Positions 50,097 to 63,813 of a stretch of DNA of 64,000 bases are shown here, piece after piece (position 1 is the stretch's first letter; each line of letters starts with the position of its first letter). The position numbers were made by a program, and so were the translations under genes. Origin of the DNA: Chlorobium sp. (GTDB taxonomy: Bacteria > Bacteroidota > Chlorobiia > Chlorobiales > Chlorobiaceae); NCBI RefSeq assembly GCF_021740465.1, contig NZ_JAIOZR010000001.1, forward strand, positions 88,800 to 152,799, written 5' to 3'. Under the pieces are notes generated by a model, which did not search any database, was not told where the DNA came from, and saw only the letters and a program-made list of their open reading frames with translations.

Positions 50097-51695
50097 ATGG
50101 ACGCAGCCTTGAATAAGGAAACCGCAAAACGGAAAACCTTTGCCATCATCAGCCACCCTGATGCCGGCAAAACCACCCTTACCGAAAAGTTTCTGCTTTT
50201 CGGCGGCGCGATCCAGACAGCCGGAGCGGTCAAGAGCAACAAGATCCGCAAGACGGCCACCAGCGACTTCATGGAAATCGAAAAGCAGCGAGGCATTTCG
50301 GTAGCCACCTCGGTGATGGGATTCGAATACAGGGGGCGCAGGGTCAACATTCTCGACACGCCCGGCCACAAGGATTTCGCCGAAGACACCTACCGCACCC
50401 TCACGGCCGTCGACAGCGTCATTCTGGTCGTCGACTGCGTCAAGGGCGTCGAAGCCCAGACCGAAAGGCTTATGGAGGTCTGCTCGATGCGCAATACTCC
50501 GGTCATCATCTTCATCAACAAGATGGACCGCGAAGGCAAAAACCCTTTCGAGTTGCTCGACGAACTCGAACACAAGCTTCAGATACAAGTCCGTCCACTC
50601 ACCTGGCCAATCAGCCAGGGCCAGACCTTCAAAGGGGTCTACAACCTTTACCGGAGAGAGCTGAACCTGTTCGAGGCCAACGCCACCAGAATCGGCGAAA
50701 CGCTCATCAAGATCAAAAGCCCCGAAGATCCGGAACTGGAAAAGTGGATTCCGGAAAGCTTCTGCGAGAGGCTGAGGGAGGAGGTCTCCCTGATAGAGGG
50801 GGTCTACGAGCCCTTCAACCCGGAGCTTTACCGCGACGGCCTTCTGGCGCCGGTCTTTTTCGGAAGCGCCATCAACAACTTCGGCGTACAGGAGCTGCTT
50901 GAAACGTTTCTGGCCATAGCCCCGAGCCCGCATGAGCGGGAGGCCGCACAGAGGGTAGTAAAAGCTTCGGAAGAGGCCATGACCGGTTTCGTATTCAAGA
51001 TCCACGCCAATCTGGACCCCAACCACCGCGACCGGACCGCCTTTTTCAGAATCTGTTCAGGCAAGTTCGAGCGCAACAAGTTCTACTACCACACCCGCCT
51101 CGGCAAGAAAATCCGGTTCTCGAGCCCCACGCAGTTCATGGCTAACGAAAAAAGCGTGATCGACGAAGCCTGGCCGGGGGATGTGATCGGCCTGTACGAC
51201 AACGGTTCGCTGAAAATCGGCGACACGCTCACCGAAGGCGAGGATCTGCAGTTCCGGGGCATTCCGAGCTTTTCGCCGGAAATTTTCAAGTTGCTTGAAA
51301 ACCGCGACCCGCTCAAGACCAAGCAGCTCGACAAGGGAATCCGGCAACTCACCGAAGAGGGTGTGGCGCAGCTCTTCGTGCAGTACGGCAGCCGCAAAAT
51401 CGTAGGCACGGTGGGCGAACTGCAGTTCGACGTCATCAAGTTCCGCCTCGAACACGAGTACGGCGCCCAGTGCGACTTCATGCCGCTCCGCTACCACAAG
51501 GCATTCTGGATAACCAGCGACAACAAGGTGCAGCTCGAGGAGTTCATGCGCCGCAAATCGACCGCCATAGCGCTCGACCGCGAAGAGCACCCGGTGTTCC
51601 TGGCCGAAAGCGAATGGATGCTGAAGGTCGCCCGCGAGGACTACCCCGAACTTGAATTCCACGCCACCTCCGAATTCAAGACCGCCGGGGAGTGA
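50097..51695 (+). CDS. prfC: peptide chain release factor 3
   Basis: [28 protein letters not shown] (G1), DTPGHKDF (G3) and NKMDR (G4). Length 532 aa. Confidence 0.95.
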
Positions 51696-51714
51696 TTTCC
51701 TCTCCCGCCTGAAA
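51647..51714 (+). repeat. direct repeat copy 1 (att-like), covering the last codons of prfC plus ~20 nt
   Basis: CGAACTTGAATTCCACGCCACCTCCGAATTCAAGACCGCCGGGGAGT (51647-51693) is identical to 52611-52657. A degenerate continuation ends in CCCGCCTGAAA in both copies. Confidence 0.85.
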
Positions 51715-51961: not shown

Positions 51962-52219
51962 ATGATCGCAATCAGCACAACCGAACTGCGGAAAAACCTG
52001 CGGAAGTATCTGAACCTCGTCCAGAAGGAACGAGTCATCATTCAGTGCGGGAAAAGCGAAACCTATGAAATCATTCCCGCCCGCAAGATCAGTGACAAAG
52101 ACTCCTGTTATTCCAATCAGGAGCTCCTCAGCGTACTGAAAGAGTCAGAGGATGACATTGCCAAGGGTCGCATCCGTGAGGTCAATGACGTCAGGGACTT
52201 ATGGGAAAATATTCCATAA
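51962..52219 (+). CDS. type II antitoxin, Phd/YefM family
   Basis: Starts [28 protein letters not shown], the typical YefM N-terminus. Overlaps the toxin gene by 19 nt. Confidence 0.8.
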
Positions 52220-52482
52220 TCGTAACCCAAAGGGCCGACAGCGATCTTAAACACTGGCATCAGAGCGGTAACAAGTCCGTTCAGCGCAAGATCGAAAAAA
52301 TCTTCAACGAACTTCGGGAACATCCAACGAAAGGAAGCGGGAAACCGGAACAGCTCAAAGGAGAGCTGTCGAAATACTGGTCGAGAAGACTGAACAAAAA
52401 AGACCGGCTCATCTATCGCATCGACGAAAACGTTGTCATCGTTTACATCCTTTCCCTCTGCGGCCATTACGACGACACGTAA
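52201..52482 (+). CDS. type II toxin, Txe/YoeB family
   Basis: [45 protein letters not shown]...GHY is collinear with YoeB (GKGKPEPLK...WSRRI...RLVY...YHY). Confidence 0.8.
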
Positions 52483-52610: not shown

Positions 52611-52679
52611 CGAACTTGAATTCCACGCCACCTCCGAATTCAAGACCGCCGGGGAGTAACCTCCCTTCCCCGCCTGAAA
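52611..52679 (+). repeat. direct repeat copy 2 (att-like), an orphan prfC 3'-end fragment
   Basis: The same 47-mer as 51647-51693. An in-frame TGA lies just upstream, so only a gene-end fragment is present. The stop is TAA here versus TGA in copy 1. Confidence 0.85.
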
Positions 52680-52941: not shown

Positions 52942-53865
52942 ATGGAAATTAAAACCGATCTCTATTTGGGTGACTGCCTGAATATCCTCAAAGAGCTGCC
53001 GGACAACTCGGTAGACCTGATATTCACCTCACCGCCATATGCAGATCAAAGAGAAAAAACCTATGGCGGAATTCATCCGGATAAATACGTTGCGTGGTTC
53101 CTGCCTATAACTGAACAACTCCTGAGAGTCCTCAAACCTACCGGCACGTTTGTTCTCAACATAAAGGAAAAGGTTGTCAACGGAGAAAGAAGTATCTACG
53201 TGATGGAGCTCATCCTTGAGATGAAAAGACAACAGGGCTGGTTTTGGACCGAGGAGTTCATCTGGCATAAAAAAAACTGCTATCCCGGTAAATGGCCAAA
53301 CCGGTTCAGAGACTCCTGGGAAAGACTGATACAGTTCAATAAAAGCAAGCAGTTCTACATGAACCAGGAAACCGTCATGGTTCCTATGGGCGAGTGGTCG
53401 AAAAGCCGTCTCAAAAGGCTCAGTGAAACAGACAAAACCCGTGATGAATCCAAAGTCGGCAGTGGATTCGGGAAAAACATTTCAAACTGGCTTGACCGGG
53501 AAAAGGCATATCCAACAAATGTACTCCATCTGGCAACCGAGTGTAACAACAAAAACCACAGTGCTGCATTTCCGCAAGGACTTCCGGAATGGTTCATCAA
53601 GCTCTTCACCAAAGAAGGCGACACGGTACTCGACCCGTTCATGGGCTCCGGCACAACCAACGCTGTAGCCAAAAGAATGAAAAGAAACTCGATCGGCATA
53701 GAAATTGTCCCTGAGTACTACGAGATGGTCAGAAACGAACTCGAACCGACGGAACTTTACCTGCTGGAAAAAAAGAACAGCTATGCAACAAATCTCCCTG
53801 AATTTCTTGTACCGTGTATATTGACGTATTACGATACCTTCCCTTTTCTTCCCTTCTCTTACTGA
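52942..53865 (+). CDS. DNA methyltransferase, beta-class N4-cytosine/N6-adenine type
   Basis: Motif IV DLIFTSPPYADQ near the N-terminus and motif I VLDPFMGSGTT near the C-terminus (beta-class permuted order). SPPY is most often seen in m4C enzymes. Confidence 0.85.
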   Translation: MEIKTDLYLGDCLNILKELPDNSVDLIFTSPPYADQREKTYGGIHPDKYVAWFLPITEQLLRVLKPTGTFVLNIKEKVVNGERSIYVMELILEMKRQQGWFWTEEFIWHKKNCYPGKWPNRFRDSWERLIQFNKSKQFYMNQETVMVPMGEWSKSRLKRLSETDKTRDESKVGSGFGKNISNWLDREKAYPTNVLHLATECNNKNHSAAFPQGLPEWFIKLFTKEGDTVLDPFMGSGTTNAVAKRMKRNSIGIEIVPEYYEMVRNELEPTELYLLEKKNSYATNLPEFLVPCILTYYDTFPFLPFSY

Positions 53866-53991
53866 TTACAATACTCTACAGCCTTCCTCCCTATCCTTTG
53901 ATTGCTTCACTTTTCGCTTTGTTTCTTATGGTTTTGTGATTAATTTGTGAGATTTCACAAGGCGTGTCACAAAAACAGGGGAATCGGCGAT

Positions 53992-55263
53992 ATGGGCGTG
54001 AAGGTTATCGAGCGAAAAGCAGCGTCGGGAGATATAGCGTTTTCGATAGACGTTTATCATAAAGACTTCGGGCGTTTCCGGCAGTCTACCGGATTAAAGG
54101 CAAGCCAGAAAGACCGTAAGGCGTACGCCAAAGCGAAGGCTGAGACGGAAGAGCAGCGACGACAGATTGAAAAGCAGCTTGAGCGGGATCCTGCCGGCAC
54201 ATTCAGCAGGAAAGCAAGACAGACGGATGATTTTCTTGATTACTATCGGAGCTACGCAGAAAAAGGGAGACATTCCGTTTTTATGAATGTTATACCGATT
54301 CTCCAGCGGTTCACCGGGGGCAAGCTATTGTTCAGTGAACTGAATTCTATCTGGTTGGAACGGTTCAAAGCGCACCTACTGACTATTGAGACTATCAGCC
54401 AGAACACGGCGACGGATTATCTCCGTTCCGTGAAAACAGTCATTCGGGCAGCTTGGAGGCTTGGGTACATCGAGCAGGATTTTACCGGCAAAGTATCGGG
54501 AATAAAGAAGGTTGCCATTGAGACGGAATTCCTTCAGGTCGAGCAGCTCAAGGCGTTGCATCGGGCGGAATGCAGTAATGAGATGATTAAGCAAGCGTTC
54601 TTTTTCGGTTGCTTCACCGGGCTAAGAATTTCAGATATTGAGGCGCTCACATGGCAGAAGGTTTCTTTGGTCAATGGAGTCCCGTACATCCGCTTTCAGC
54701 AGGTTAAGACGGGCCAGTATGAAAACTATCCTCTTACTGCCGATGCCGTGAAGGTTCTGCAAGCTGTTCGGGGGATCTATGCGGAATTCGCTCCAGAGGG
54801 TAGCGATAGCGTGTTCATCCTTCCGAGTCGGAGCCGATTGGGGCAGATTCTTCACGTCTGGGGATTATCGGCAGGGTTGAAATTTCGGTTACACTTCCAT
54901 GTTTCCCGGCACACCTTCGCCACATCGGCGCTTACTGCCGGCGTGGATCATTATACGGTTTCAAAACTGTTAGGACATACGGACATAGGGACTACGCAGC
55001 GATATATAAGGCTTGTTGATTCCAAGAGGCTTGCAGCGGTTCAGTCGTTACCAGACGTGCTTCAGTCATTCCCGGCGGATCAGGCAGTGTTCCCGGCGCC
55101 ACCAGCAGCAGCCGGCACGGGAAAGAGCACGCTATCTAAGGCGCTTGAGGTGAAAGGCCAGAAGATTGCAGCGGCGTTATCGTTGCCTCGGGATGATGAC
55201 GGGCGCTATCTGTTCGACGGGCAGCGATATACAGCGGTTGAACTTGCAATTGAGGTTCAGTAA
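53992..55263 (+). CDS. tyrosine-type site-specific integrase
   Basis: Start placed at the ATG at 53992 (MGVKVIERK); the track starts at the GTG at 53947. Box I is TGLRISDIEAL. Box II is HVSRHTFATSAL...LLGHTDIGTTQRYIRL (R-H-R-Y catalytic set). Confidence 0.9.
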   Translation: MGVKVIERKAASGDIAFSIDVYHKDFGRFRQSTGLKASQKDRKAYAKAKAETEEQRRQIEKQLERDPAGTFSRKARQTDDFLDYYRSYAEKGRHSVFMNVIPILQRFTGGKLLFSELNSIWLERFKAHLLTIETISQNTATDYLRSVKTVIRAAWRLGYIEQDFTGKVSGIKKVAIETEFLQVEQLKALHRAECSNEMIKQAFFFGCFTGLRISDIEALTWQKVSLVNGVPYIRFQQVKTGQYENYPLTADAVKVLQAVRGIYAEFAPEGSDSVFILPSRSRLGQILHVWGLSAGLKFRLHFHVSRHTFATSALTAGVDHYTVSKLLGHTDIGTTQRYIRLVDSKRLAAVQSLPDVLQSFPADQAVFPAPPAAAGTGKSTLSKALEVKGQKIAAALSLPRDDDGRYLFDGQRYTAVELAIEVQ

Positions 55264-55278
55264 ACAACAATAAAACAA

Positions 55279-55980
55279 GTGGATGATATGAATATTCATT
55301 GGGGCGTCATCAAGGTTCTTCAGGATGCAGCGGAATCCTTTATTGAGAAAGAGCAAGGCAAAGCGAGGTTTCACCGGGAACAACAGCTTTGCTGTGGCGC
55401 AATGACAGATGAGGGCTTAAAGCATGACCGGATAGTTAAAGAAGGATATCGGCGCATTACTGAGGTCGAGACGTTCCGGGAAAAGCTGTCTGATGTTGCG
55501 ACTACGGAGGATATTGATTCTTTGTTGAGCGATAGGGTTCGGGGGTGGCTCATTTTAGGAATGGCGAGTAAGGCTGATGCCAGCCGGTGGACGAAAGAAC
55601 TTGTCGATTCGGGAGAATGGAGCTTAAAAAAAGGATTGATGCCGTATGAGCAGTATTTCATGTTTCAGGCTCATAATCTCCTACGGCGGCTCCCGGCTGA
55701 TTTATCGGAACCAGTCGATCAAGCACACAGTTTAAACGCTGAATCCCGATGCTTACAGTTCATCGAAGAACGCCATAAACTGGCGGCTCCTGATGATCAA
55801 CTGCTTTATCTCCCATTAAAAGGAGGGCGGAGACCGGTTGGAGCGAAAACCAAGACAGGTTATATCGCAAAGCTATATGATGATTTTAAGAAAGAGTCTC
55901 CAGTTTTGGTTGCGCTATCAGTGTTTGAGCAGGCATTTAAGACATACAAAAGGCAATTGAACGAGAAAAAGAATAGGTAG
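55279..55980 (+). CDS. hypothetical protein (element-encoded)
   Basis: 233-aa ORF 16 nt after the integrase stop. No motif recognised. Confidence 0.5.
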   Translation: MDDMNIHWGVIKVLQDAAESFIEKEQGKARFHREQQLCCGAMTDEGLKHDRIVKEGYRRITEVETFREKLSDVATTEDIDSLLSDRVRGWLILGMASKADASRWTKELVDSGEWSLKKGLMPYEQYFMFQAHNLLRRLPADLSEPVDQAHSLNAESRCLQFIEERHKLAAPDDQLLYLPLKGGRRPVGAKTKTGYIAKLYDDFKKESPVLVALSVFEQAFKTYKRQLNEKKNR

Positions 55981-56075
55981 AAATAAGGACACCTTATACC
56001 TATTCGTCCTTCCTATAAATCCATTAGTAACATGCACTTGCAGTTAACAGAACTTCAAGTAAACATGTTGCTATT

Positions 56076-56306
56076 ATGGAAAGCACACTTCTTACCAGAC
56101 CTGAGAAAAAGTTCTTCTCTACTCCTGAGCTTGTCACTTTCCTGCATGACTATGCGGGCATGACTGTTTCCAAATCGACAGTATTCAAGTGGTCGATGCT
56201 TGGGAAAATTCCTTGCCAGAAAGCGCCAAACGGCAGACTCCTTTTTCCCGTGGATAAGGTTCAGCAATGGATCGAGAGCGGCAGCGTCGAGCAAGGGGAG
56301 GGCTGA
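56076..56306 (+). CDS. excisionase/AlpA-like helix-turn-helix protein
   Basis: 76 aa. FFSTPELVTFLHDYAGMTVSKSTVFKWSMLGKIPCQKAPNGRLLFPVDKVQQWI fits the MerR/excisionase-type HTH_17 pattern. Confidence 0.65.
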   Translation: MESTLLTRPEKKFFSTPELVTFLHDYAGMTVSKSTVFKWSMLGKIPCQKAPNGRLLFPVDKVQQWIESGSVEQGEG

Positions 56307-56309
56307 GCG

Positions 56310-56579
56310 ATGACGCGAAAAAGCAAAAGCCTCACCGGGCGAAAGGTGAGGCTTAAGAAGGAAATTGATGCTGATGGGCGAGACCAGCGGGAACAGTCTC
56401 AAAATATCCAGCCTGCCGATAATTTCAAAGCCTTCGAGACCTACGAGCGAAATGTCCGGCGGGCCTGCATTGATGCTTACGTGCTCCTGAAGGACTTCCC
56501 GTCACGCTTGCGATTCAGCTACTTCGTCGGCTCAGATGGCAAGCTTCTTGCGCGTTGCGAACGGAGGGCAGGTCAATGA
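56310..56579 (+). CDS. hypothetical protein (element-encoded)
   Basis: 89-aa basic ORF starting 4 nt after the HTH gene. Its stop overlaps the next small ORF (ATGA). Confidence 0.45.
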   Translation: MTRKSKSLTGRKVRLKKEIDADGRDQREQSQNIQPADNFKAFETYERNVRRACIDAYVLLKDFPSRLRFSYFVGSDGKLLARCERRAGQ

Positions 56580-56698
56580 CAAATCAACAGCGCCCACACG
56601 GCAAGAATTCGACCGGGCTATTCGACGATAGCCTGATTCTCAGGTTAAGAGCTTTCCTTGTTCAGCTCAACCGATTCATGGGAGGGCTTGGATTATGA
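56576..56698 (+). CDS. 40-aa ORF, translationally coupled on both sides
   Basis: Below the track length cutoff; read by hand as MTNQQRPHGKNSTGLFDDSLILRLRAFLVQLNRFMGGLGL. Its ATG overlaps the upstream stop (ATGA at 56576-56579). Its TGA overlaps the helicase ATG (ATGA at 56695-56698). Confidence 0.35.
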   Translation: MTNQQRPHGKNSTGLFDDSLILRLRAFLVQLNRFMGGLGL

Positions 56699-58155
56699 CC
56701 AGTATCATTGACGAGATCAGAGCCGAAGCGTTTGAGTCGGAGCCAGAAAAAAAAGATGTTTTGGGATTGTCTGGAATGTCACTTTTGTCACCAAATGAGA
56801 TTCTTGAGCAGCTTCTTGAGCAGATCGAGCCGGTCAATTTTACCGGATTCACGGGCGGCGGAGAGGTTCGAGCAGTTCATCACCGAATCTATTCTATCAA
56901 AAGCGTTGTCCGTTTGGCTGAGTGCAAGAACTGGGGCTTATGCAAAAGAAACGGGGCGGTTTATGTTTTCACCGGGTCGCATTGGCGGCGGGTCGAGGAT
57001 GACGATATGGAAGCGTTCTTGGGTACGGCGGCGCTCCGGACAGGCGTTCCGAGGTATCGGGCAGATGATTACAAATTCCGGGCAGAGCTGTTAAAGCAGT
57101 TTCATAGCGAGGCGCATCTAACCCAGCCGGACATGGGCACGGGTCGAACACTCATCAACCTGCAGAACGGGACATTCGAAATTACACAGTCCGGCCAGCA
57201 GTTACGAGAGTTCCGGCGCGCGGACTTTCTGACGCACGTTTTACCATTCGAGTACAGGGAGGATGCTAAGGCGCCTTTGTTCCGGTCGTTCCTTGAGAGA
57301 GTTTTACCGGATCCGGATTCGCAGCGAGTTTTAGCGGAGTTCGTGGGTTACGTCTTCATCCGTGGGTTGAAACTCGAAAAGGCGCTCATGCTTTACGGCG
57401 GCGGCGCGAACGGGAAGAGCGTCTTTTTCGACATACTTCTTGCCCTGCTTGGGTCAGACAATGCCAGCAGCTACAGCCTTGCCAGCTTGACCGACAGCCG
57501 AAATGCTTACTACCGGGCGATGCTTGCGGATAAGCTTGTGAATTACGCTTCTGAGATTAACAGTAAGGTCGAAGCAAGCATATTCAAACAGATCGTTTCA
57601 GGTGAGCCGGTCGAAGCGAGGTTACCGTACGGGAAACCCTTTATTCTGAAGGAATACGCGAAACTGATTTTCAATGCGAACGAACTGCCGAGAGATGTTG
57701 AACACACGAACGCATATTTTCGGCGGTTCCTGATTATTCCGTTCACGGTTACGATTCCTGAGCACGAGCAGGACAAGCAGTTGGCCGGTAAGATAATTGC
57801 TTCGGAATTGCCGGGCGTTTTTAATTGGGCGTTAGAAGGCTTGCGACGGTTACTCCAACAGAAAAACTTCAGCAATTGCGATGCCGCACGGCACGCGGTC
57901 GATCAGTATAAACGTGAAAGCGATTCTGTTCAAATGTTCGTTGACGATCGAGCGCTTGAGCCTTCAGGTGTTGGCTTCGAGACACTGGGAGACCTCTACA
58001 AAGGCTATAAGAGCTTTTGTGCTGATGACGGTTACCGAGAATTAAATAAGCGGAATTTCTCAAAGCGTTTGGAGGCTTGCGGGTTTGAGAAGGTCAAGAG
58101 GGGTACCGGGTGGGGCTTCGGTTGTTCCCGGCGCGCGGATGAGGAGCCGTTTTAG
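56695..58155 (+). CDS. phage/plasmid primase P4-family C-terminal helicase (D5-like NTPase)
   Basis: Walker A LMLYGGGANGKSVFFDIL, then IFNANELP and YFRRFLIIPF, which are typical of P4 alpha / D5-type replicative NTPases. Confidence 0.8.
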   Translation: MTSIIDEIRAEAFESEPEKKDVLGLSGMSLLSPNEILEQLLEQIEPVNFTGFTGGGEVRAVHHRIYSIKSVVRLAECKNWGLCKRNGAVYVFTGSHWRRVEDDDMEAFLGTAALRTGVPRYRADDYKFRAELLKQFHSEAHLTQPDMGTGRTLINLQNGTFEITQSGQQLREFRRADFLTHVLPFEYREDAKAPLFRSFLERVLPDPDSQRVLAEFVGYVFIRGLKLEKALMLYGGGANGKSVFFDILLALLGSDNASSYSLASLTDSRNAYYRAMLADKLVNYASEINSKVEASIFKQIVSGEPVEARLPYGKPFILKEYAKLIFNANELPRDVEHTNAYFRRFLIIPFTVTIPEHEQDKQLAGKIIASELPGVFNWALEGLRRLLQQKNFSNCDAARHAVDQYKRESDSVQMFVDDRALEPSGVGFETLGDLYKGYKSFCADDGYRELNKRNFSKRLEACGFEKVKRGTGWGFGCSRRADEEPF

Positions 58156-58207
58156 TGACAAAAGTGACATTTATGACAGTGGTAAAACAATCTTTTTTTT
58201 GAGCGTA

Positions 58208-59116
58208 ATGTTTGAGTACCGTTATCACTTGGAGCGGAGCGGATCGAAACATATCTGCCCGGCATGCCAGCAGCGGCGCTTTGTTCGGTACGTTGATACC
58301 GTGACCGGCGAACAGATTGCTGACGATGTAGGCCGATGCGACAGAGAGGATTCATGCGGTTATCACCTGAGACCGAGTGAGTACTTAAGGCAGGCAGGCG
58401 CAAGGCCGCCAGCAGCACCGAGACGAAAGGGGCCGATACTTGAGCCTGAGCCTTCGCTTATTGATGCAGAGATGGCGAATAAGAGCCTTAGGAATTACAA
58501 TGAGAACAATTTCGCGTGGTGGCTTGCCAGCGTGTTCGGGATTGAGAAAGCTTTCGAGCTTGTCGATGCTTATCACGTTGGCACGTCGAAGCATTGGCCG
58601 GGAGCTTCGATATTCTGGCAGCAGGACGTTGCAGGCAGGATCAGGAGCGGGAAAATCATGCTCTATAACGCAGAGACGGGGCGCAGGGTGAAAGAACCGT
58701 TTAATCATACCAATTGGGTACACAAGGTTCTCAATATCGAGCCTTTCCACCTGAAACAGTGCCTGTTCGGAGAGCACCTGCTTATCAGGGAAGAAAAGCC
58801 CGTTGCCCTTGTTGAGAGCGAAAAGACGGCTATCGTTGCTGCAGGATTCATCCCGGAATACTCATGGCTGGCGCTCGGCGGCAAGAGAGGCAATACAGAC
58901 AAGACACGGGAGGCACTGCGAGTATTGCGGAACCGCAAGGTAACGTTATTCCCTGACTTGGGCGCGTTCGACAAATGGAGCGAGATTGCAAAGGGAATGC
59001 CTGGCTTTACGGTGAGTGATATTCTTGAGAGACGAGCAACCGACACGGACAGGGCTGCAGGGTTGGACTTGGCAGATTATCTCTTGATGGAAAACAGGCA
59101 GGCGCTTTCAGCTTGA
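58208..59116 (+). CDS. Zn-ribbon plus Toprim-like primase-domain protein
   Basis: Start placed at MFEYRYH (ATG at 58208). N-terminal ICPACQQRRFVRY...GRCDREDSCGYH (Cys4-type ribbon). Later LVESEKTAIVAA and TLFPDLGAFDKW resemble the Toprim E and DxD motifs. Confidence 0.6.
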   Translation: MFEYRYHLERSGSKHICPACQQRRFVRYVDTVTGEQIADDVGRCDREDSCGYHLRPSEYLRQAGARPPAAPRRKGPILEPEPSLIDAEMANKSLRNYNENNFAWWLASVFGIEKAFELVDAYHVGTSKHWPGASIFWQQDVAGRIRSGKIMLYNAETGRRVKEPFNHTNWVHKVLNIEPFHLKQCLFGEHLLIREEKPVALVESEKTAIVAAGFIPEYSWLALGGKRGNTDKTREALRVLRNRKVTLFPDLGAFDKWSEIAKGMPGFTVSDILERRATDTDRAAGLDLADYLLMENRQALSA

Positions 59117-59169
59117 GATAGAACGGCGGCTATGGGAGAGCCAGCGAGAAGATCCAGCAGCGCGCCGAT

Positions 59170-59613
59170 ATGGCGGCAAGGATCGGGGTTCAGATGAAGG
59201 TTTTACATTACAAACAATCGGCACGAGCCGGACAAACGGGAAAGCACATGAGTAGAAAAAGAGAGAGTTGGGGGAGTGTTACGAGGATAGCAGACAGAGC
59301 GTTCAGGGAAACGGGGCCGGTTTTTTCTGAGAAAATCTTCCCGCTCCTAACTCCTGAATTATCTGAGACCATTGCCGATGTATCCCGGCGAGCCTTTGAA
59401 TCAGACTTTATCAACTCTCAGGAGGTGCGTTGTTTGATGCTGAGCTTATATAACTCTTGGGTATCAGGAAACCCGGATATGGCGCTGCACGTGGCGGAGA
59501 TCGTAGCGGATCAGGTTCTACATATTACGGGAACATTGCAATCTGAAGGTATCGAATTCGACAATGACGGACGGCGGACGGATGGATACGGCGACGAGTA
59601 CGAGATCACGTGA
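59170..59613 (+). CDS. hypothetical protein (element-encoded)
   Basis: 147-aa ORF with no motif recognised. The start is uncertain. Confidence 0.4.
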   Translation: MAARIGVQMKVLHYKQSARAGQTGKHMSRKRESWGSVTRIADRAFRETGPVFSEKIFPLLTPELSETIADVSRRAFESDFINSQEVRCLMLSLYNSWVSGNPDMALHVAEIVADQVLHITGTLQSEGIEFDNDGRRTDGYGDEYEIT

Positions 59614-59747
59614 CCGGAGCGACGGGGAAGGGAGGGGGCGGAAAGAAACTTTTAAAAACGGGCTTGCCAGAATAACACTGCTGGGGATTTTTTTTAGTGC
59701 GCCGATAATTTCGAGTATTTTTGTCAACCAACAAGCGATTCACACCA

Positions 59748-60230
59748 ATGAAAAGACTACCGAAGCAAATGCACATCTTACAAGGCACATACAGACCTGC
59801 ACGGCACGACGGAGAACCTGAGTTCCCGGCAGCGAGCACCAAACCACCGAAACATCTTACACCGGCGGCGCGGGCAGTTTGGCGACAGGAAGCCGTTCCA
59901 CTTATCGAGAACGGAGTTCTGACGGTTGCCGATATTTCTATGATGGCGGATTATTGCCAGCTTGTCGCAGACTACCGAGCGTTGATGCAGGAGATTGGCG
60001 GGTGCTTTGTCGTGGACAGCGCAAGAGAGGACGGCGCGCAAGTGAAAAACCCGGCGTGGCAGATTGCGCGAGACATGCTCCAACTGATAAACGCGATGAG
60101 ACTTCAGTTCGGTTTGTCGCCTGTCTCAAGGTCGAAAGTGACGGCACCGGAGAAGCAAAAGCCGAGCAGTGAGTGGGATGAGTTTTCAGCCGAGATAGCC
60201 AGCAGGGGCCGGATGCAGGGTAATGAATGA
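59748..60230 (+). CDS. phage terminase small subunit, P27 family
   Basis: Start placed at the ATG at 59748 (MKRLPKQMHILQGTYRPARH). LTPAARAVWRQ...GVLTVADISMMADYCQL and NPAWQIARDMLQLINAMRLQFGLSPVSRSKV fit the P27-family TerS pattern. Confidence 0.7.
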   Translation: MKRLPKQMHILQGTYRPARHDGEPEFPAASTKPPKHLTPAARAVWRQEAVPLIENGVLTVADISMMADYCQLVADYRALMQEIGGCFVVDSAREDGAQVKNPAWQIARDMLQLINAMRLQFGLSPVSRSKVTAPEKQKPSSEWDEFSAEIASRGRMQGNE

Positions 60231-60552
60231 TATGGCTTTACGCGAGATCGTTCAACGTGGGCGATTTATGAGCGTCGTTTTTCATGAGAGAGGTGGCGTT
60301 TTTTGCATTCGATGGATAGGCAAGAATTCCAGTAATGGCCGGAAAGCTTTATACTCAGGGGTTAAGGCTCAGAGCGTTGGCGATATACCACCAAAACGCA
60401 ACAAAGGAACGAATAAACGAACAAATAAAGAGACGTATCGGGCAGGTTCAGGATGACTGCAAGGAGCGTATTTCTCGGCTTTTTTTGTTTTATATGAATA
60501 TCTTATCTAAAAAAAATTATTGTCTGGCAGCATAACATTAAAGAGAATCAAA

Positions 60553-61452
60553 ATGGGTACTTGCAATCTTGATCAGAACGGCCAGCCTGAAAACATAGCA
60601 TTCAATTATTATGCGAATCGTAGAAAAGCCCTCTATAGCCTGATGGGAATCATTGAGGGTATCCAATCCGATACGGTTATCACTGATTCTGAAATCGGAT
60701 TTCTCAGTGTATGGATAGATGAAAATGAAGAGTTATTCAGAAATGCCTTAATGGGTTCGCTACAACAAAAAATCCGCAAGATATGCCAACAATGCCATGT
60801 TTCACATGAAGAAGTGGCGGGTATCCGAGCAGCTGCAAGTATTCTTGTTTACGACAATGACAAGCTAATAGTAAACTATGGCCCTGAAAATGGTCATGAA
60901 TTATTACTTGGTATTTGCAAAGGAATCAGCTCCGACCGTATCCTGAATGATACTGAAATCGAATACCTTGCCGAATTTCTTGATAGAAACACTTTTCTGC
61001 GAAATTCTTGGCCGGGTTCTGAATTATTTTCAAAACTAAAAGCTGTTTTACAGGATGGAGTAATAACGGAAAATGAAAGAACGATTCTGAAGAATGCTAT
61101 CAATTCATTGTTTGGTGATTCTATAGCTCAGGGTATCACTGAGGGCTTATCTACCCGTTTCCCTGTTGATTCGGATGCTGAAATCATCTTCTCAGAACGT
61201 ACTTTCTGCCTTACGGGAACATTTCTGCACGGAGAACGTAAAGAGTGCGAAGCGCTCATTTCTAAACGAGGTGGCATACCGATGAAGTCAGTTACAAAAA
61301 AACTGAATTACCTTGTAATAGGGGCATTATCCTCAAGAGATTGGAAATTTTCAAATTATGGGCTCAAAATACAAAACGCTGTACTCAATCGGGATCAAAA
61401 AGGGTGTATCGTAAAAATTATCAACGAGGAAATGTGGCTTTCAGCACTCTAA
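60553..61452 (+). CDS. TerB-like-repeat / BRCT-domain protein, unknown function
   Basis: Start at the ATG at 60553 (AAGAGA 6 nt upstream). Three xD(G/T/R)xIx(D/E)xExxxL repeats (SDTVITDSEIGFL, SDRILNDTEIEYL, QDGVITENERTIL). The C-terminal FCLTGTFLHGERKECEALISKRGGIPMKSVTKKLNYLVIG is BRCT-like, as in the LigA C-terminus. Confidence 0.65.
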   Translation: MGTCNLDQNGQPENIAFNYYANRRKALYSLMGIIEGIQSDTVITDSEIGFLSVWIDENEELFRNALMGSLQQKIRKICQQCHVSHEEVAGIRAAASILVYDNDKLIVNYGPENGHELLLGICKGISSDRILNDTEIEYLAEFLDRNTFLRNSWPGSELFSKLKAVLQDGVITENERTILKNAINSLFGDSIAQGITEGLSTRFPVDSDAEIIFSERTFCLTGTFLHGERKECEALISKRGGIPMKSVTKKLNYLVIGALSSRDWKFSNYGLKIQNAVLNRDQKGCIVKIINEEMWLSAL

Positions 61453-61642
61453 TATTATCGGTCAGAAAACAAATTAGACAGGGCATGAATTACAGTAGTG
61501 TCTTTTCGGGGTTTTATCGGGCTTAGATCGGGAGTTTCAGGTTTACAAAAAGTATTTCATTGATGAGTGTCCGAAATGAAACCATCTACCAGTATGGCTT
61601 GCGGGTAAATTTCTTAATCAGCAATAGTCATAAGAAGAATTG

Positions 61643-61675
61643 AAGCCGGGAACGTATTTTCCTGGCTTTTTTGTT
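61643..61675 (+). terminator. rho-independent terminator
   Basis: AAGCCGGGAA-CGTATT-TTCCTGGCTT followed by TTTTGTT. About 190 nt after the BRCT gene stop and upstream of the endonuclease gene. Confidence 0.55.
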
Positions 61676-61839
61676 GTCTCACTGGGGCTGTTTTTCCGTT
61701 TTTGTGATGGTTTTGTGACGAAATGACCGGAGAAGCCTGTAAATACTGATGTCTGTATGAATCCCTGAACGACGTATCGACATACGTTGAAAACAATATC
61801 GGTACCTTTCACCAGAAAAGGATTGCAAGCCTCGACGGC

Positions 61840-62484
61840 TTGAGCCTGAAAAAAGTCCTGAAGAGAAAAAATCCCTACCTTTTCAAGGCGAAGTACGTTC
61901 TGACTGCCGAGGAAATCATCAGGGGCCTTGTCGATGCTCATATTTCATCGAACGAGGAAACAATTTTCGGCGACTGGCTTGAGGGACTTGCAATTTTCAT
62001 CAACGGAAAAGTCTATGGGGGCTGGAAATCAGGAATTGATGGAATAGATCTTGAATTTGATAACGATGGGCAGCGATTCATGGTTAACATCAAGTCCGGC
62101 CCGAACTGGGGAAATGCAAGCCAGATAAAAAAAATGAAATCCGACTTCAGAACAGCGGCTAAAACGCTTCGTACCAGTAATTCAGGACTGCAGGTTGTTG
62201 CGATCAACGGCTGTTGCTATGGAAAGAGCACCAATCCCGATAAAGGGGATTATTACAAGTACTGCGGTCAAAAATTTTGGGAATTCATCTCTGGAAATGC
62301 CGAACTTTACACAGAAATCATCGAACCATTGGGACATAAAGCGAAAGAAAAAAACGATGAATTTCAGCAATCCTACGCCCAGAGAATCAACATGTTCACT
62401 AAGACCTTTACCTGCGAATACTGCAAGGACAACGGGACCATCGACTGGAAAAAACTCGTGGAATTCAACTCGTCGGCCAGCTGA
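61840..62484 (+). CDS. PmeII/Eco47II-like type II restriction endonuclease (N-terminus apparently frameshifted)
   Basis: KRKNPYLFKAKYVLTAEEI...SSNEETIFGDWLEGLAIFI...GIDLEFDNDG...NIKSGPNWGNASQIKKM...CGQKFWEFISG matches my recollection of this REase family. The open frame continues upstream to 61750 without an ATG/GTG/TTG; see the finding. Confidence 0.65.
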   Translation: MSLKKVLKRKNPYLFKAKYVLTAEEIIRGLVDAHISSNEETIFGDWLEGLAIFINGKVYGGWKSGIDGIDLEFDNDGQRFMVNIKSGPNWGNASQIKKMKSDFRTAAKTLRTSNSGLQVVAINGCCYGKSTNPDKGDYYKYCGQKFWEFISGNAELYTEIIEPLGHKAKEKNDEFQQSYAQRINMFTKTFTCEYCKDNGTIDWKKLVEFNSSAS

Positions 62485-62637: not shown

Positions 62638-63813
62638 TCACAATTTCGAAAGTGCAGTAAGCAGATAATCAAACCCGATGCGCTCCTGCTCCAGCCTGAC
62701 CCGCTCACCCAGGCTGCCACTGCGCAAATCGTCGTACAGCGCCATTTCCTCACCGGTCAGCCTTGTCAGCTCCACGGTCTCGGGTGATGGCTCAACGCCC
62801 CATAGCGTTCTGTGAGCCAGAAGCGTCTCTCTGTCCATCAGCAGTGACTTCACTTCAGGAAAAAACCCGCGCAACTGATTGAGAATGGCGAAGCCGTGGG
62901 TATCGATGTCCCCCCAGTAATGGATCTTCCGCTCGCACACCCATTGGGCGTCTGCAAGGTTCTCGAAACCGTAACCGGCTCCAAAAATCACCATCGAGCG
63001 GAAAACAGGGGGAAATGCAAGGAAGTTGATTTCGTTTTCGGTAATGAACACCCTATCAACCGCAAGGTTGAGCCCGGCAAAGACTTGCTGCGTCAGGGTA
63101 ATATCCTGATCGGCATCAACCGGCAGGAGTGCGAGATCCGAATCGAGAATCCTGAAGCGTACCCGCAAGGGTTTTTCCCGGAATCCGTAACGGCGGCAGA
63201 ACCCCCCTGCACCTGAAGCCTCGGCATCGATAGCGTCCGATGGAAGCACGAGGTCGAACAGCTCACTCAGCACGCTACGATTCGCTTCGATAAACTTGCT
63301 GTGCACGCCCGGGAGATCGACCTGACGCAGATAAATATCCGAACGCGGATGCATCTGCAGCCAGGCGACGATCTGCAGAAGATTCGGCCACGATTCGGCA
63401 AGTTCAAGTGTGCGCAACGGACGCTTCCGGAGCCACGGAATCAGTTCGGGTTGCCTCTGGCGAGTCAGACGAACGAGATCGGTAAACCGTTCGGCATCGC
63501 GCACCTTGCCGATGAAGGCCAGCGCATCCCGAAGCGAATCGATCCATAGTTCCGCCGGAACTTCGTTGACACCGAGAACGCGATGATTGAACGTGCGCCA
63601 GACGATCCGGTAGTGCTTCGCCGCACCCGAAAGCTGCGCAATCCAGTCGCGGACCTCGGAAAACGATTCGCTGAGCTGCCGTGAATCGGGTCTTTTCAGG
63701 CTCAGACGTCGGGGAAAAAGCTCCTCGCCATCCATCAGAGCTGATAGCAGCCGTTCGCGATCCCAGAGTTTCTGCACCTGGGCCCTCAGATCAGCAGGAG
63801 TCGTCCAGTTCAT
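62638..63813 (-). CDS. jetD: Wadjet component JetD (DUF3322 + Toprim-like DUF2220)
   Basis: 391 aa. The C-terminal FITENEINFLAF...IFGAGYG...IHYWGDIDTHGFAILNQLR is the JetD Toprim/topo-VI-A-like signature. The start overlaps the upstream stop (ATGA). Confidence 0.85.
   Translation of the reverse strand: MNWTTPADLRAQVQKLWDRERLLSALMDGEELFPRRLSLKRPDSRQLSESFSEVRDWIAQLSGAAKHYRIVWRTFNHRVLGVNEVPAELWIDSLRDALAFIGKVRDAERFTDLVRLTRQRQPELIPWLRKRPLRTLELAESWPNLLQIVAWLQMHPRSDIYLRQVDLPGVHSKFIEANRSVLSELFDLVLPSDAIDAEASGAGGFCRRYGFREKPLRVRFRILDSDLALLPVDADQDITLTQQVFAGLNLAVDRVFITENEINFLAFPPVFRSMVIFGAGYGFENLADAQWVCERKIHYWGDIDTHGFAILNQLRGFFPEVKSLLMDRETLLAHRTLWGVEPSPETVELTRLTGEEMALYDDLRSGSLGERVRLEQERIGFDYLLTALSKL

Follow-up and report, generated by a model that had tools for sequence, protein, structure and literature searches.

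The subject of this analysis is a single gene towards the right end of a 64,000-nucleotide stretch of Chlorobium sp. DNA (NCBI RefSeq assembly GCF_021740465.1, contig NZ_JAIOZR010000001.1, positions 88,800 to 152,799 of the forward strand), which we refer to, at its full length, as the window. The gene is an open reading frame (ORF) at 60553-61452 on the plus strand that encodes, counted from its ATG, a protein of 299 amino acids (aa). An earlier inspection of the letters alone, which we call the sequence-only reading, had placed this ORF in an AT-rich patch directly after the gene for TerS and suspected it of being defence cargo. The ORF is real and the patch is as described, with a GC content of 0.38-0.40 across 60250-61750 vs 0.49-0.55 in the upstream part of the mobile element to which the gene belongs. 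An in-frame TTG at 60520 offers an alternative start that would give 310 aa (11 residues extra); homologues align from the same position as the ATG, and an independent gene call on identical DNA, in the metagenomic contig L042, yields the same 299-aa product. The protein combines two tandem helical domains with a BRCT domain, in the following arrangement:

60553..61452, plus strand: gene for the tandem helical and BRCT protein, stop codon included; an ORF with a full-length match to phrog_3989
60625..60852, plus strand: helical domain 1 (aa ~25-100), delineated from the hhalign duplication, the AlphaFold (AF2) model and column frequencies
60889..61116, plus strand: helical domain 2 (aa ~113-188), delineated from the hhalign duplication, the AF2 model and column frequencies
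61171..61449, plus strand: BRCT domain of the LigA/RFC1 type (aa ~207-299), from Pfam, a PDB profile search, Foldseek and conservation

That the protein ends in a BRCT domain, as had been proposed, is borne out by sequence profiles and predicted structure alike. The Pfam model PF00533 matches aa 210-259 with 28.5 bits (gathering cut-off 21.3), and it also matches 142 of 150 family representatives, these being the best 150 of the family-wide profile search described below. A search of the PDB with a profile of ten homologues recovers the BRCT domain of human RFC1 (E 2e-8), S. pombe Rad4 and bacterial LigA. In the AF2 model of the whole protein, with a mean predicted local distance difference test score (pLDDT) of 75.5, the strands (E) and helices (H) follow the canonical BRCT order, E217-221, H229-238, E242-244, E253-256, H268-282, E288-291 and H292-298, and Foldseek matches this model to the BRCT domains of RFC1, LigA, Rad4, PARP1 and XRCC1 with probabilities of 0.9-1.0. 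Two residues of the domain, W264 and G270, are invariant in the family (150/150 each); G222 and K272 are each retained in 148 representatives, R229 in 143, and position 221 is T in 141 and S in 7. In RFC1, the TG...R residues contact the 5' phosphate of DNA, and in a hidden Markov model alignment it is to this TG and R that T221, G222 and R229 are aligned. Together with K272, taken as the pocket lysine because it lies where helix alpha2 begins and not by superposition, T221-G222 and R229 make up a putative phosphate pocket. The family departs from other BRCT domains by a signature of its own, S-x-D-W...Y-G-R-K-I, and by a longer helix alpha2.

The likeness to LigA and RFC1, the top hits for aa ~207-299 by sequence as well as by structure, is confined to this domain. 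Pfam finds in the window protein none of the adenylation, OB, Zn-finger and HhH domains of a ligase, and the AAA+ module of RFC1 is likewise absent. In NCBIfam, the LigA models and a PolIII-epsilon model (PRK06195) are matched at their BRCT ends alone, far under the cut-offs; the LigA model TIGR00575, for example, scores 30.2 bits against a cut-off of 444, in the BRCT region alone. Because the LigA models match only at their BRCT ends, the label 'NAD-dependent DNA ligase' that is often attached to the relatives is a mis-annotation.

The N-terminal part, in which the sequence-only reading saw three TerB-like repeats, is a tandem duplication. The segments aa ~25-100 and ~113-188 align to each other in hhalign with a probability of 99.2% (E 3e-19), each unit spanning ~85 aa, and the N-terminal region modelled alone with AF2 (pLDDT 86, predicted template modelling score 0.86) forms two similar units, each of four long helices and one short helix. 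Each unit carries two D-x6-E half-motifs, so that there are four sites in the protein; the consensus of the first half-motif is L-x-G-I-x-x-G-I-x-x-D-x6-E-x2-(F/Y)-L-x2-W and that of the second is L-x-D-G-x5-E-(R). In domain 1, the half-motif D40...E47 is intact and the other is degenerate (Q80, C81, E87); domain 2 has both, D128...E135 and D168-G169...E175-R176. The three motifs originally noticed (aa 39-51, 127-139 and 167-179) are therefore not chance, being half-sites 1, 3 and 4 of the duplication instead of three repeats, and the acidic pairs that they contain, D40/E47, D128/E135 and D168/E175, each recur in 136 or more of the 150 representatives.

The kinship of these helical domains with TerB is another matter. 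The window protein has no Pfam match to TerB or DUF533, even at E<=1; among the 150 family members, TerB (PF05099) matches 35, with a best E of 7.2e-5, and DUF533 (PF04391) matches 19, with a best E of 9.6e-6, and two further relatives have precomputed matches to PF05099 or PF04391. Foldseek with the N-terminal model returned from the PDB nothing better than E 0.4 and no TerB, a search in which the two-domain query may reduce sensitivity, and no match from BFVD; the PDB profile search with the N-terminal alignment gave coiled-coil noise only. When the family profile was compared in hhalign with E. coli DjlA and YebE, the ~25-residue ADG-x5-ER half-motif was aligned, with a probability <4%. What the family shares with the TerB clan (PF05099, PF04391 and the DjlA N-terminal domain) is the (A)DG-x5-E-(R) half-motifs and the conserved acidic pairs, whereas here the unit is shorter, at ~85 aa, and occurs twice, followed by a BRCT domain. 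Since the sequence and structure searches for TerB were weak or empty, we speak of acidic half-motifs of a TerB-like kind, set on a helical domain whose kinship is uncertain; a relationship to TerB, if there is one, would be weak and at the level of motifs. The TerB-like N-terminus first proposed has Pfam matches in some of the relatives but none in the window protein, and with the whole model, too, Foldseek matched nothing to the helical part. For comparison, the validated Shango defence system includes a TerB-like protein (PMC10250203).

The family itself is large and, under uninformative names, already present in the databases. The window protein matches phrog_3989, for which the recorded function is none, almost from end to end (E 1.9e-79, aa 11-299 vs profile positions 2-292 of 296), and when 1.84 billion cluster representatives are searched by profile, 6,959 of them match at E<=1e-3 and 1,216 also at E<=1e-30. 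Most members are ~290-305 aa long and have the architecture of the window protein. Among the best 150 representatives, 26 have a length of at least 350 aa, and 8 (about 5%) carry an N-terminal RNase_T/DEDDh exonuclease; one relative has a C-terminal HhH2 and BRCT pair that resembles the end of LigA, and several long relatives have extensions without a Pfam match. The window protein, by comparison, has no enzymatic domain in Pfam, NCBIfam or PADLOC, in agreement with the sequence-only reading. It is not LigA, not DnaQ and not demonstrably a member of the TerB family; besides phrog_3989, its relatives are catalogued as orf2 of phage K139, as RefSeq 'BRCT domain-containing protein' and, as mentioned, as a ligase.

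A possible link to antivirus defence comes from the PADLOC profile of a candidate phage-defence system, PDC-S48 (PDLC05027, 411 positions). Positions 279-393 of this profile match aa 163-271 of the window protein (E 7.7e-5), a segment that spans the last half-motif and the BRCT domain, and in the relative P0007 the match extends over positions 232-376, that is, over the whole of helical domain 2 and the BRCT domain. The three exonuclease-fused family members that were scanned match with E of 1e-24 to 7e-37. PDC-S48 can thus be described as a DEDDh domain followed by one helical unit and a BRCT domain, of which the window protein matches the C-terminal part. The difference is plain: PDC-S48 has an N-terminal DEDDh 3'-5' exonuclease, whereas the window protein has no RNase_T/DEDDh domain and possesses a second helical unit. 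We conclude that the window protein is a nuclease-free, two-unit relative of the PADLOC candidate PDC-S48. The proposal that no described defence system has this architecture has to be qualified to that extent: none was found in the literature searched, but the family is catalogued and its module occurs in PDC-S48. The same literature yielded no functional description of the family or of PDC-S48, and no functional account of a BRCT protein in bacterial or phage defence.

The genomic positions of the relatives present another facet of the story, and it is among viruses that they are most uniform. At least 151 viral contigs in IMG/VR carry a relative, and in 76 of the best 80 loci, to which our counts refer, the neighbour is a convergent CI-type repressor gene (HTH_3 and Peptidase_S24) with a 3' overlap of 9-18 nucleotides (nt); cro-like and cII-like genes follow beyond the repressor, and phage immunity genes are the only conserved neighbours in these loci. 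In the P2-like Vibrio phage K139, the homologue is orf2 of an annotated lysogenic operon, PL-cI-orf2-glo-int. K139 Orf2 (NP_536630.1) has the full-length architecture of the window protein, with 32% identity over 99% of the length, and both are cargo of temperate mobile elements; they differ in that orf2 belongs to the cI-orf2-glo-int operon of a P2-like phage, whereas the window gene comes last in a satellite-like element that has no cI. The product of glo, the gene beside orf2, is annotated in the record as a periplasmic protein, phage exclusion. Pseudomonas phage phi1 (Detrevirus) encodes a short form, with one helical unit and the BRCT domain, on the same strand as the repressor and 30 nt after it, and in Sulfurimonas phage SNW-1 (L039 3935-4992) a short homologue, annotated 'DNA polymerase', is divergent from cII. 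Genes of phage type also surround the metagenomic relatives P0004 and P0009, namely, S24 peptidase and HNH in one case and antiterminator Q and ANT in the other; an enterobacterial prophage homologue gave no megablast match to complete E. coli genomes. Lambda rexAB and BstA are lysogeny-expressed exclusion genes beside the repressor of temperate phages. The phage members of the BRCT family share this niche with rexAB, BstA and K139 glo, although they have no sequence or domain similarity to any of these.

As a separate observation, a thermonuclease-family gene begins 2 nt after the BRCT homologue of SNW-1 and may encode a nuclease partner in trans.

Cellular genomes offer a more diverse picture. 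Across 29 species-level genome loci there is no conserved partner gene, and the commonest neighbour families are HTH_3, S24, YdaS/Cro and CII. The closest genome homologue (46% identity) comes from a metagenome-assembled genome of Chlorobium sp. (L008 10916-11871); it is followed there by a 113-aa ORF without a Pfam match and by a RelA_SpoT protein of 205 aa, the size of a small alarmone-synthetase toxin. In the Bacteroidota clade, in which four contexts were sampled, one relative comes directly after an Eco57I-type restriction-modification (R-M) gene, with a PIN gene nearby, and another has an RHS toxin gene, an HTH_17 gene and a gene for a DUF559-DEAD helicase around it; such surroundings resemble restriction or defence islands. 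Relatives next to ligA, to which we return below, are a minority, most of the sampled contexts being prophage immunity regions or variable islands.

In the window, the gene occupies the distal end of a satellite-like element, the parts and flanks of which are these:

52942-53865: N6_N4 DNA methyltransferase gene, just left of the element
53922..53939, no strand assigned: candidate left attachment (att) repeat, TTTCTTATGGTTTTGTGA, just upstream of the integrase gene; tentative
53947..60230, plus strand: core of the satellite-like element, from Pfam; a block 100% identical on contig L042
59721-60230: TerS (Terminase_4, E 2e-18)
61642..61669, plus strand: terminator-like hairpin and T-run, 190 nt past the stop codon of the BRCT gene; from a consensus scan, a pattern match only
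61701..61718, no strand assigned: candidate right att repeat, pairing with 53922-53939; tentative
61840-62484, same strand as the BRCT gene: restriction endonuclease of the EcoO109I family (E 1e-83)
62638-63813, minus strand: JetD (PADLOC, E 3e-155)

The core genes encode a tyrosine integrase (53947), a weak HTH_17 protein, a D5/DUF5906 primase-helicase, a protein with DUF6371 and a Zn-ribbon, and TerS, and the Pfam scan detects no capsid, portal or large terminase (TerL) genes in the element, which fits a satellite similar to P4 or to the phage-inducible chromosomal islands. The two candidate att repeats form an 18-nt direct repeat with 16/18 positions identical, although short two-copy repeats of this kind can arise by chance; if genuine, they would delimit an element of 7.8 kb in which the BRCT gene comes last, the terminator-like hairpin standing between that gene and the right repeat. 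Neither an empty integration site nor an excised form of the element was found. The 8,019-bp metagenomic contig L042 (Logan SRR12088350_80389) corresponds to window positions 53773-61791 with 100% identity and extends beyond the element by ~150 bp on one side and ~70 bp on the other; that it breaks off near the element ends may be due to flanks that vary between strains. An excised circle was considered for this contig and ruled out, the contig being co-linear with the window and without terminal overlap. Megablast of the element against phage records gave no match, and in tblastn searches the other satellite genes were absent from all loci of BRCT homologues. No homologue locus having the same satellite, the BRCT gene travels between elements independently of it, and we regard it as a separately acquired, low-GC accessory ('moron') cargo gene at the distal end of the element, which is in essence how the sequence-only reading had placed it.

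The longest ORF for the DUF6371 and Zn-ribbon protein shares 71 nt (58085-58155) with the end of the gene for the primase-helicase; the gene call on L042 uses a later start, which reduces the overlap to 17 nt, and the two genes are probably translationally coupled.

The restriction endonuclease and Wadjet that were said to flank the gene are both there, with the reservation that JetD is the sole jet gene inside the window and the remainder of the Wadjet operon would fall past its end. Because the methyltransferase and the restriction endonuclease flank the element, the latter probably belongs to an R-M pair that was split by the insertion; an exact look-up of the flanking methyltransferase gave no uninterrupted methyltransferase-endonuclease locus. 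The endonuclease ORF starts at a TTG and is without the first ~25 positions of the Pfam profile, and the ~30 in-frame codons upstream contain no start; since the beginning of the profile and an upstream start codon are both missing, the enzyme may be truncated or inactive. Membership of the BRCT gene in Wadjet was also considered and rejected, the JetB match being at noise level (E 0.044) and jetD lying on the opposite strand, 1.2 kb off.

What, then, does the BRCT protein do? Starting from the observed architecture, family, fusions and genomic positions, we tentatively favour the possibility that it is an exclusion or defence factor that would act on the DNA of competitors and would be made while the element is resident. 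In the scenario that seems most likely to us, the BRCT domain would bind a 5'-phosphorylated DNA end or nick, the substrate of host LigA; a phosphorylated partner protein is a possible alternative ligand. The duplicated helical domains with their Asp/Glu pairs would, most likely, serve as a regulatory module that senses a metal or another ligand or else oligomerises. Production in the resident state is what the cI-adjacent phage relatives appear to practise, and the window protein would follow the same schedule, with the DNA of competing phages or elements as its target. Two routes to exclusion can be envisaged: either occupation of the ends or nicks would cause circularisation, nick sealing or replication to fail, or a host exonuclease would be brought to the ends or nicks of the competitor, a job that the DEDDh-fused relatives would do in one polypeptide. 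Links to LigA recur in the family, in the nearest BRCT domains, in the HhH2-BRCT fusion and in the adjacency to ligA, and the DEDDh fusions repeatedly link it to a 3'-5' exonuclease. Extended to the family, this line of thought would make the stand-alone tandem-helical and BRCT proteins a widespread, nuclease-free, single-gene exclusion or defence factor that mimics the BRCT domain of the host ligase, recognising 5'-phosphorylated ends or nicks of incoming or replicating foreign DNA, with TerB-like acidic pockets as the gate; in so broad a form we consider the claim doubtful.

Several observations weigh against an exclusion or defence role. There is no effector domain, and the killing or blocking step is speculative for that reason. 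PDC-S48 is itself a PADLOC candidate system. In the 29 genome loci, a CI-like gene lies within four genes in only 7 and a tyrosine recombinase within 10 kb in only 4, and few of the neighbours have PADLOC matches. In Aeromonas and Vibrio, the copies have the same surroundings from one species to the next, with neighbours that do not look mobile (a LacI-family regulator; a BCCT transporter). Two Bacteroidota relatives, with 59% mutual identity, follow ligA at a distance of 10-12 nt, the neighbourhoods being different in other respects (L002/L003 10001-10903 and L127 5001-5906, from Bacteroidota-like metagenomic genomes), which suggests that in this sub-clade the ligA operon includes the BRCT homologue. 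Finally, the window protein deviates from its own family at two of the sites invoked above: position 271 is Leu, where 124 of the 150 relatives have the Arg of the Y-G-R-K-I motif, and half-site 2 has Q80/C81 where relatives carry D (108/150) and G (91/150). With L271 and the lost Asp-Gly, its subclade may bind differently or may have partially degenerated. The sequence-only reading had itself named a predominance of housekeeping contexts, for instance next to ligA, as the finding that would speak against defence; such contexts were found in part, as the two homologues directly after ligA, and within a minority of the sampled loci.

The ligA-adjacent and the stable chromosomal copies fit equally well a role in repair or replication, as an accessory factor that would act alongside LigA or the replisome and that elements would carry for their own replication, integration or circularisation. 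Bound to nicks or 5'-phosphate ends, such a factor would assist or control the way in which these are sealed or processed. For this explanation speak the BRCT domain, nearest to those of LigA and RFC1, the relatives that directly follow ligA while their neighbourhoods otherwise differ, the relative fused to the HhH2-BRCT part of the LigA C-terminus and the fusions to a DnaQ-like DEDDh domain, for which mycobacterial DnaQ, a proofreader that combines DEDDh and BRCT, is a precedent (bioRxiv 10.1101/2023.10.24.563508), as well as the Aeromonas and Vibrio chromosomal copies with neighbours stable across species. The phage data run counter to it: K139 orf2 belongs to the lysogenic operon with cI and not to the replication genes, and the 76/80 viral loci have the gene at the 3' end of cI, outside the replication module. 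Moreover, the low GC and the patchy distribution fit optional cargo, and the satellite core has its own primase-helicase. On balance, we consider an accessory function the main rival explanation for the window protein, though a somewhat less likely one than exclusion or defence.

The seat beside cI admits yet another explanation, in which the protein would be a regulator of lysogeny or induction, a sensor of DNA damage or nicks tied to the repressor that tunes the induction or maintenance of the prophage or satellite. Adjacency to cI, be it convergent as in the 76/80 viral loci or on the same strand after cI as in K139 and phi1, speaks for such a regulator, the SNW-1 homologue divergent from cII takes the usual place of the repressor, and a BRCT domain of this class is suited to binding damaged DNA or DNA ends. 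The element in the window, however, has no cI-like gene nearby, 22 of the 29 genome loci likewise have no nearby repressor, and the space adjacent to cI also houses unrelated lysogeny-expressed cargo, lambda rexAB being an example; regulation of induction is, in our estimate, quite unlikely.

Very unlikely, too, is a role in anti-defence or helper interference, whereby the protein would shield the ends or nicks of its own element from RecBCD, restriction enzymes or Wadjet, or would disturb the DNA of the helper. A BRCT domain of an end-binding type without an enzymatic domain would be appropriate for shielding, as would the satellite position beside TerS in a host locus with a restriction endonuclease and Wadjet; however, the co-transcription of the K139 gene with cI points to the resident state and not to the entry or lytic stage, and the exonuclease-fused relatives degrade DNA instead of protecting it. 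A two-gene system in which the protein would serve the downstream EcoO109I-family nuclease as its sensor or adaptor can hardly be right: the nuclease gene is adjacent, at a spacing of 388 nt and on the same strand, but the terminator-like site at 61642-61669, which suggests that the BRCT gene is separate from the endonuclease transcript, and the candidate att repeat at 61701-61718 intervene, GC is 0.39 in the BRCT gene vs 0.44-0.46 in the endonuclease gene, neither RE_EcoO109I nor any other conserved partner occurs in the 29 genome or 80 viral loci, and with a methyltransferase at 52942-53865 across the element the endonuclease is probably half of a split R-M pair.

The interest of the family lies in its abundance, in its conserved seat adjacent to cI and in the unusual absence of an effector: here is a large group of proteins, routinely mislabelled as DNA ligase, that occupies a fixed place beside the repressor in several unrelated lineages of temperate phages. 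Its members are already in the databases, if under uninformative names. Should the exclusion or defence role be true of the window protein, a BRCT-based mechanism without a nuclease of its own would join bacterial immunity, and there would be a handle on how the exonuclease-fused PDC-S48 candidates target DNA. Should it be true of the family as a whole, a new, BRCT-based mode of immunity would be at hand that would also explain the cI-adjacent gene in lambdoid, P2-like and D3-like prophages. Were the accessory role to prove correct instead, the family would represent a new bacterial component of nick processing that phages have borrowed.

Beyond the element, the neighbourhood of the BRCT gene, with a Phd/YoeB toxin-antitoxin pair, the methyltransferase, the restriction endonuclease and Wadjet, looks like a defence island. 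Within it, a 60-nt direct repeat with 92% identity (51647-51706 and 52611-52670) brackets the Phd/YefM-YoeB pair (51962-52482), a unit that has the appearance of a small inserted cassette or of a target duplication.

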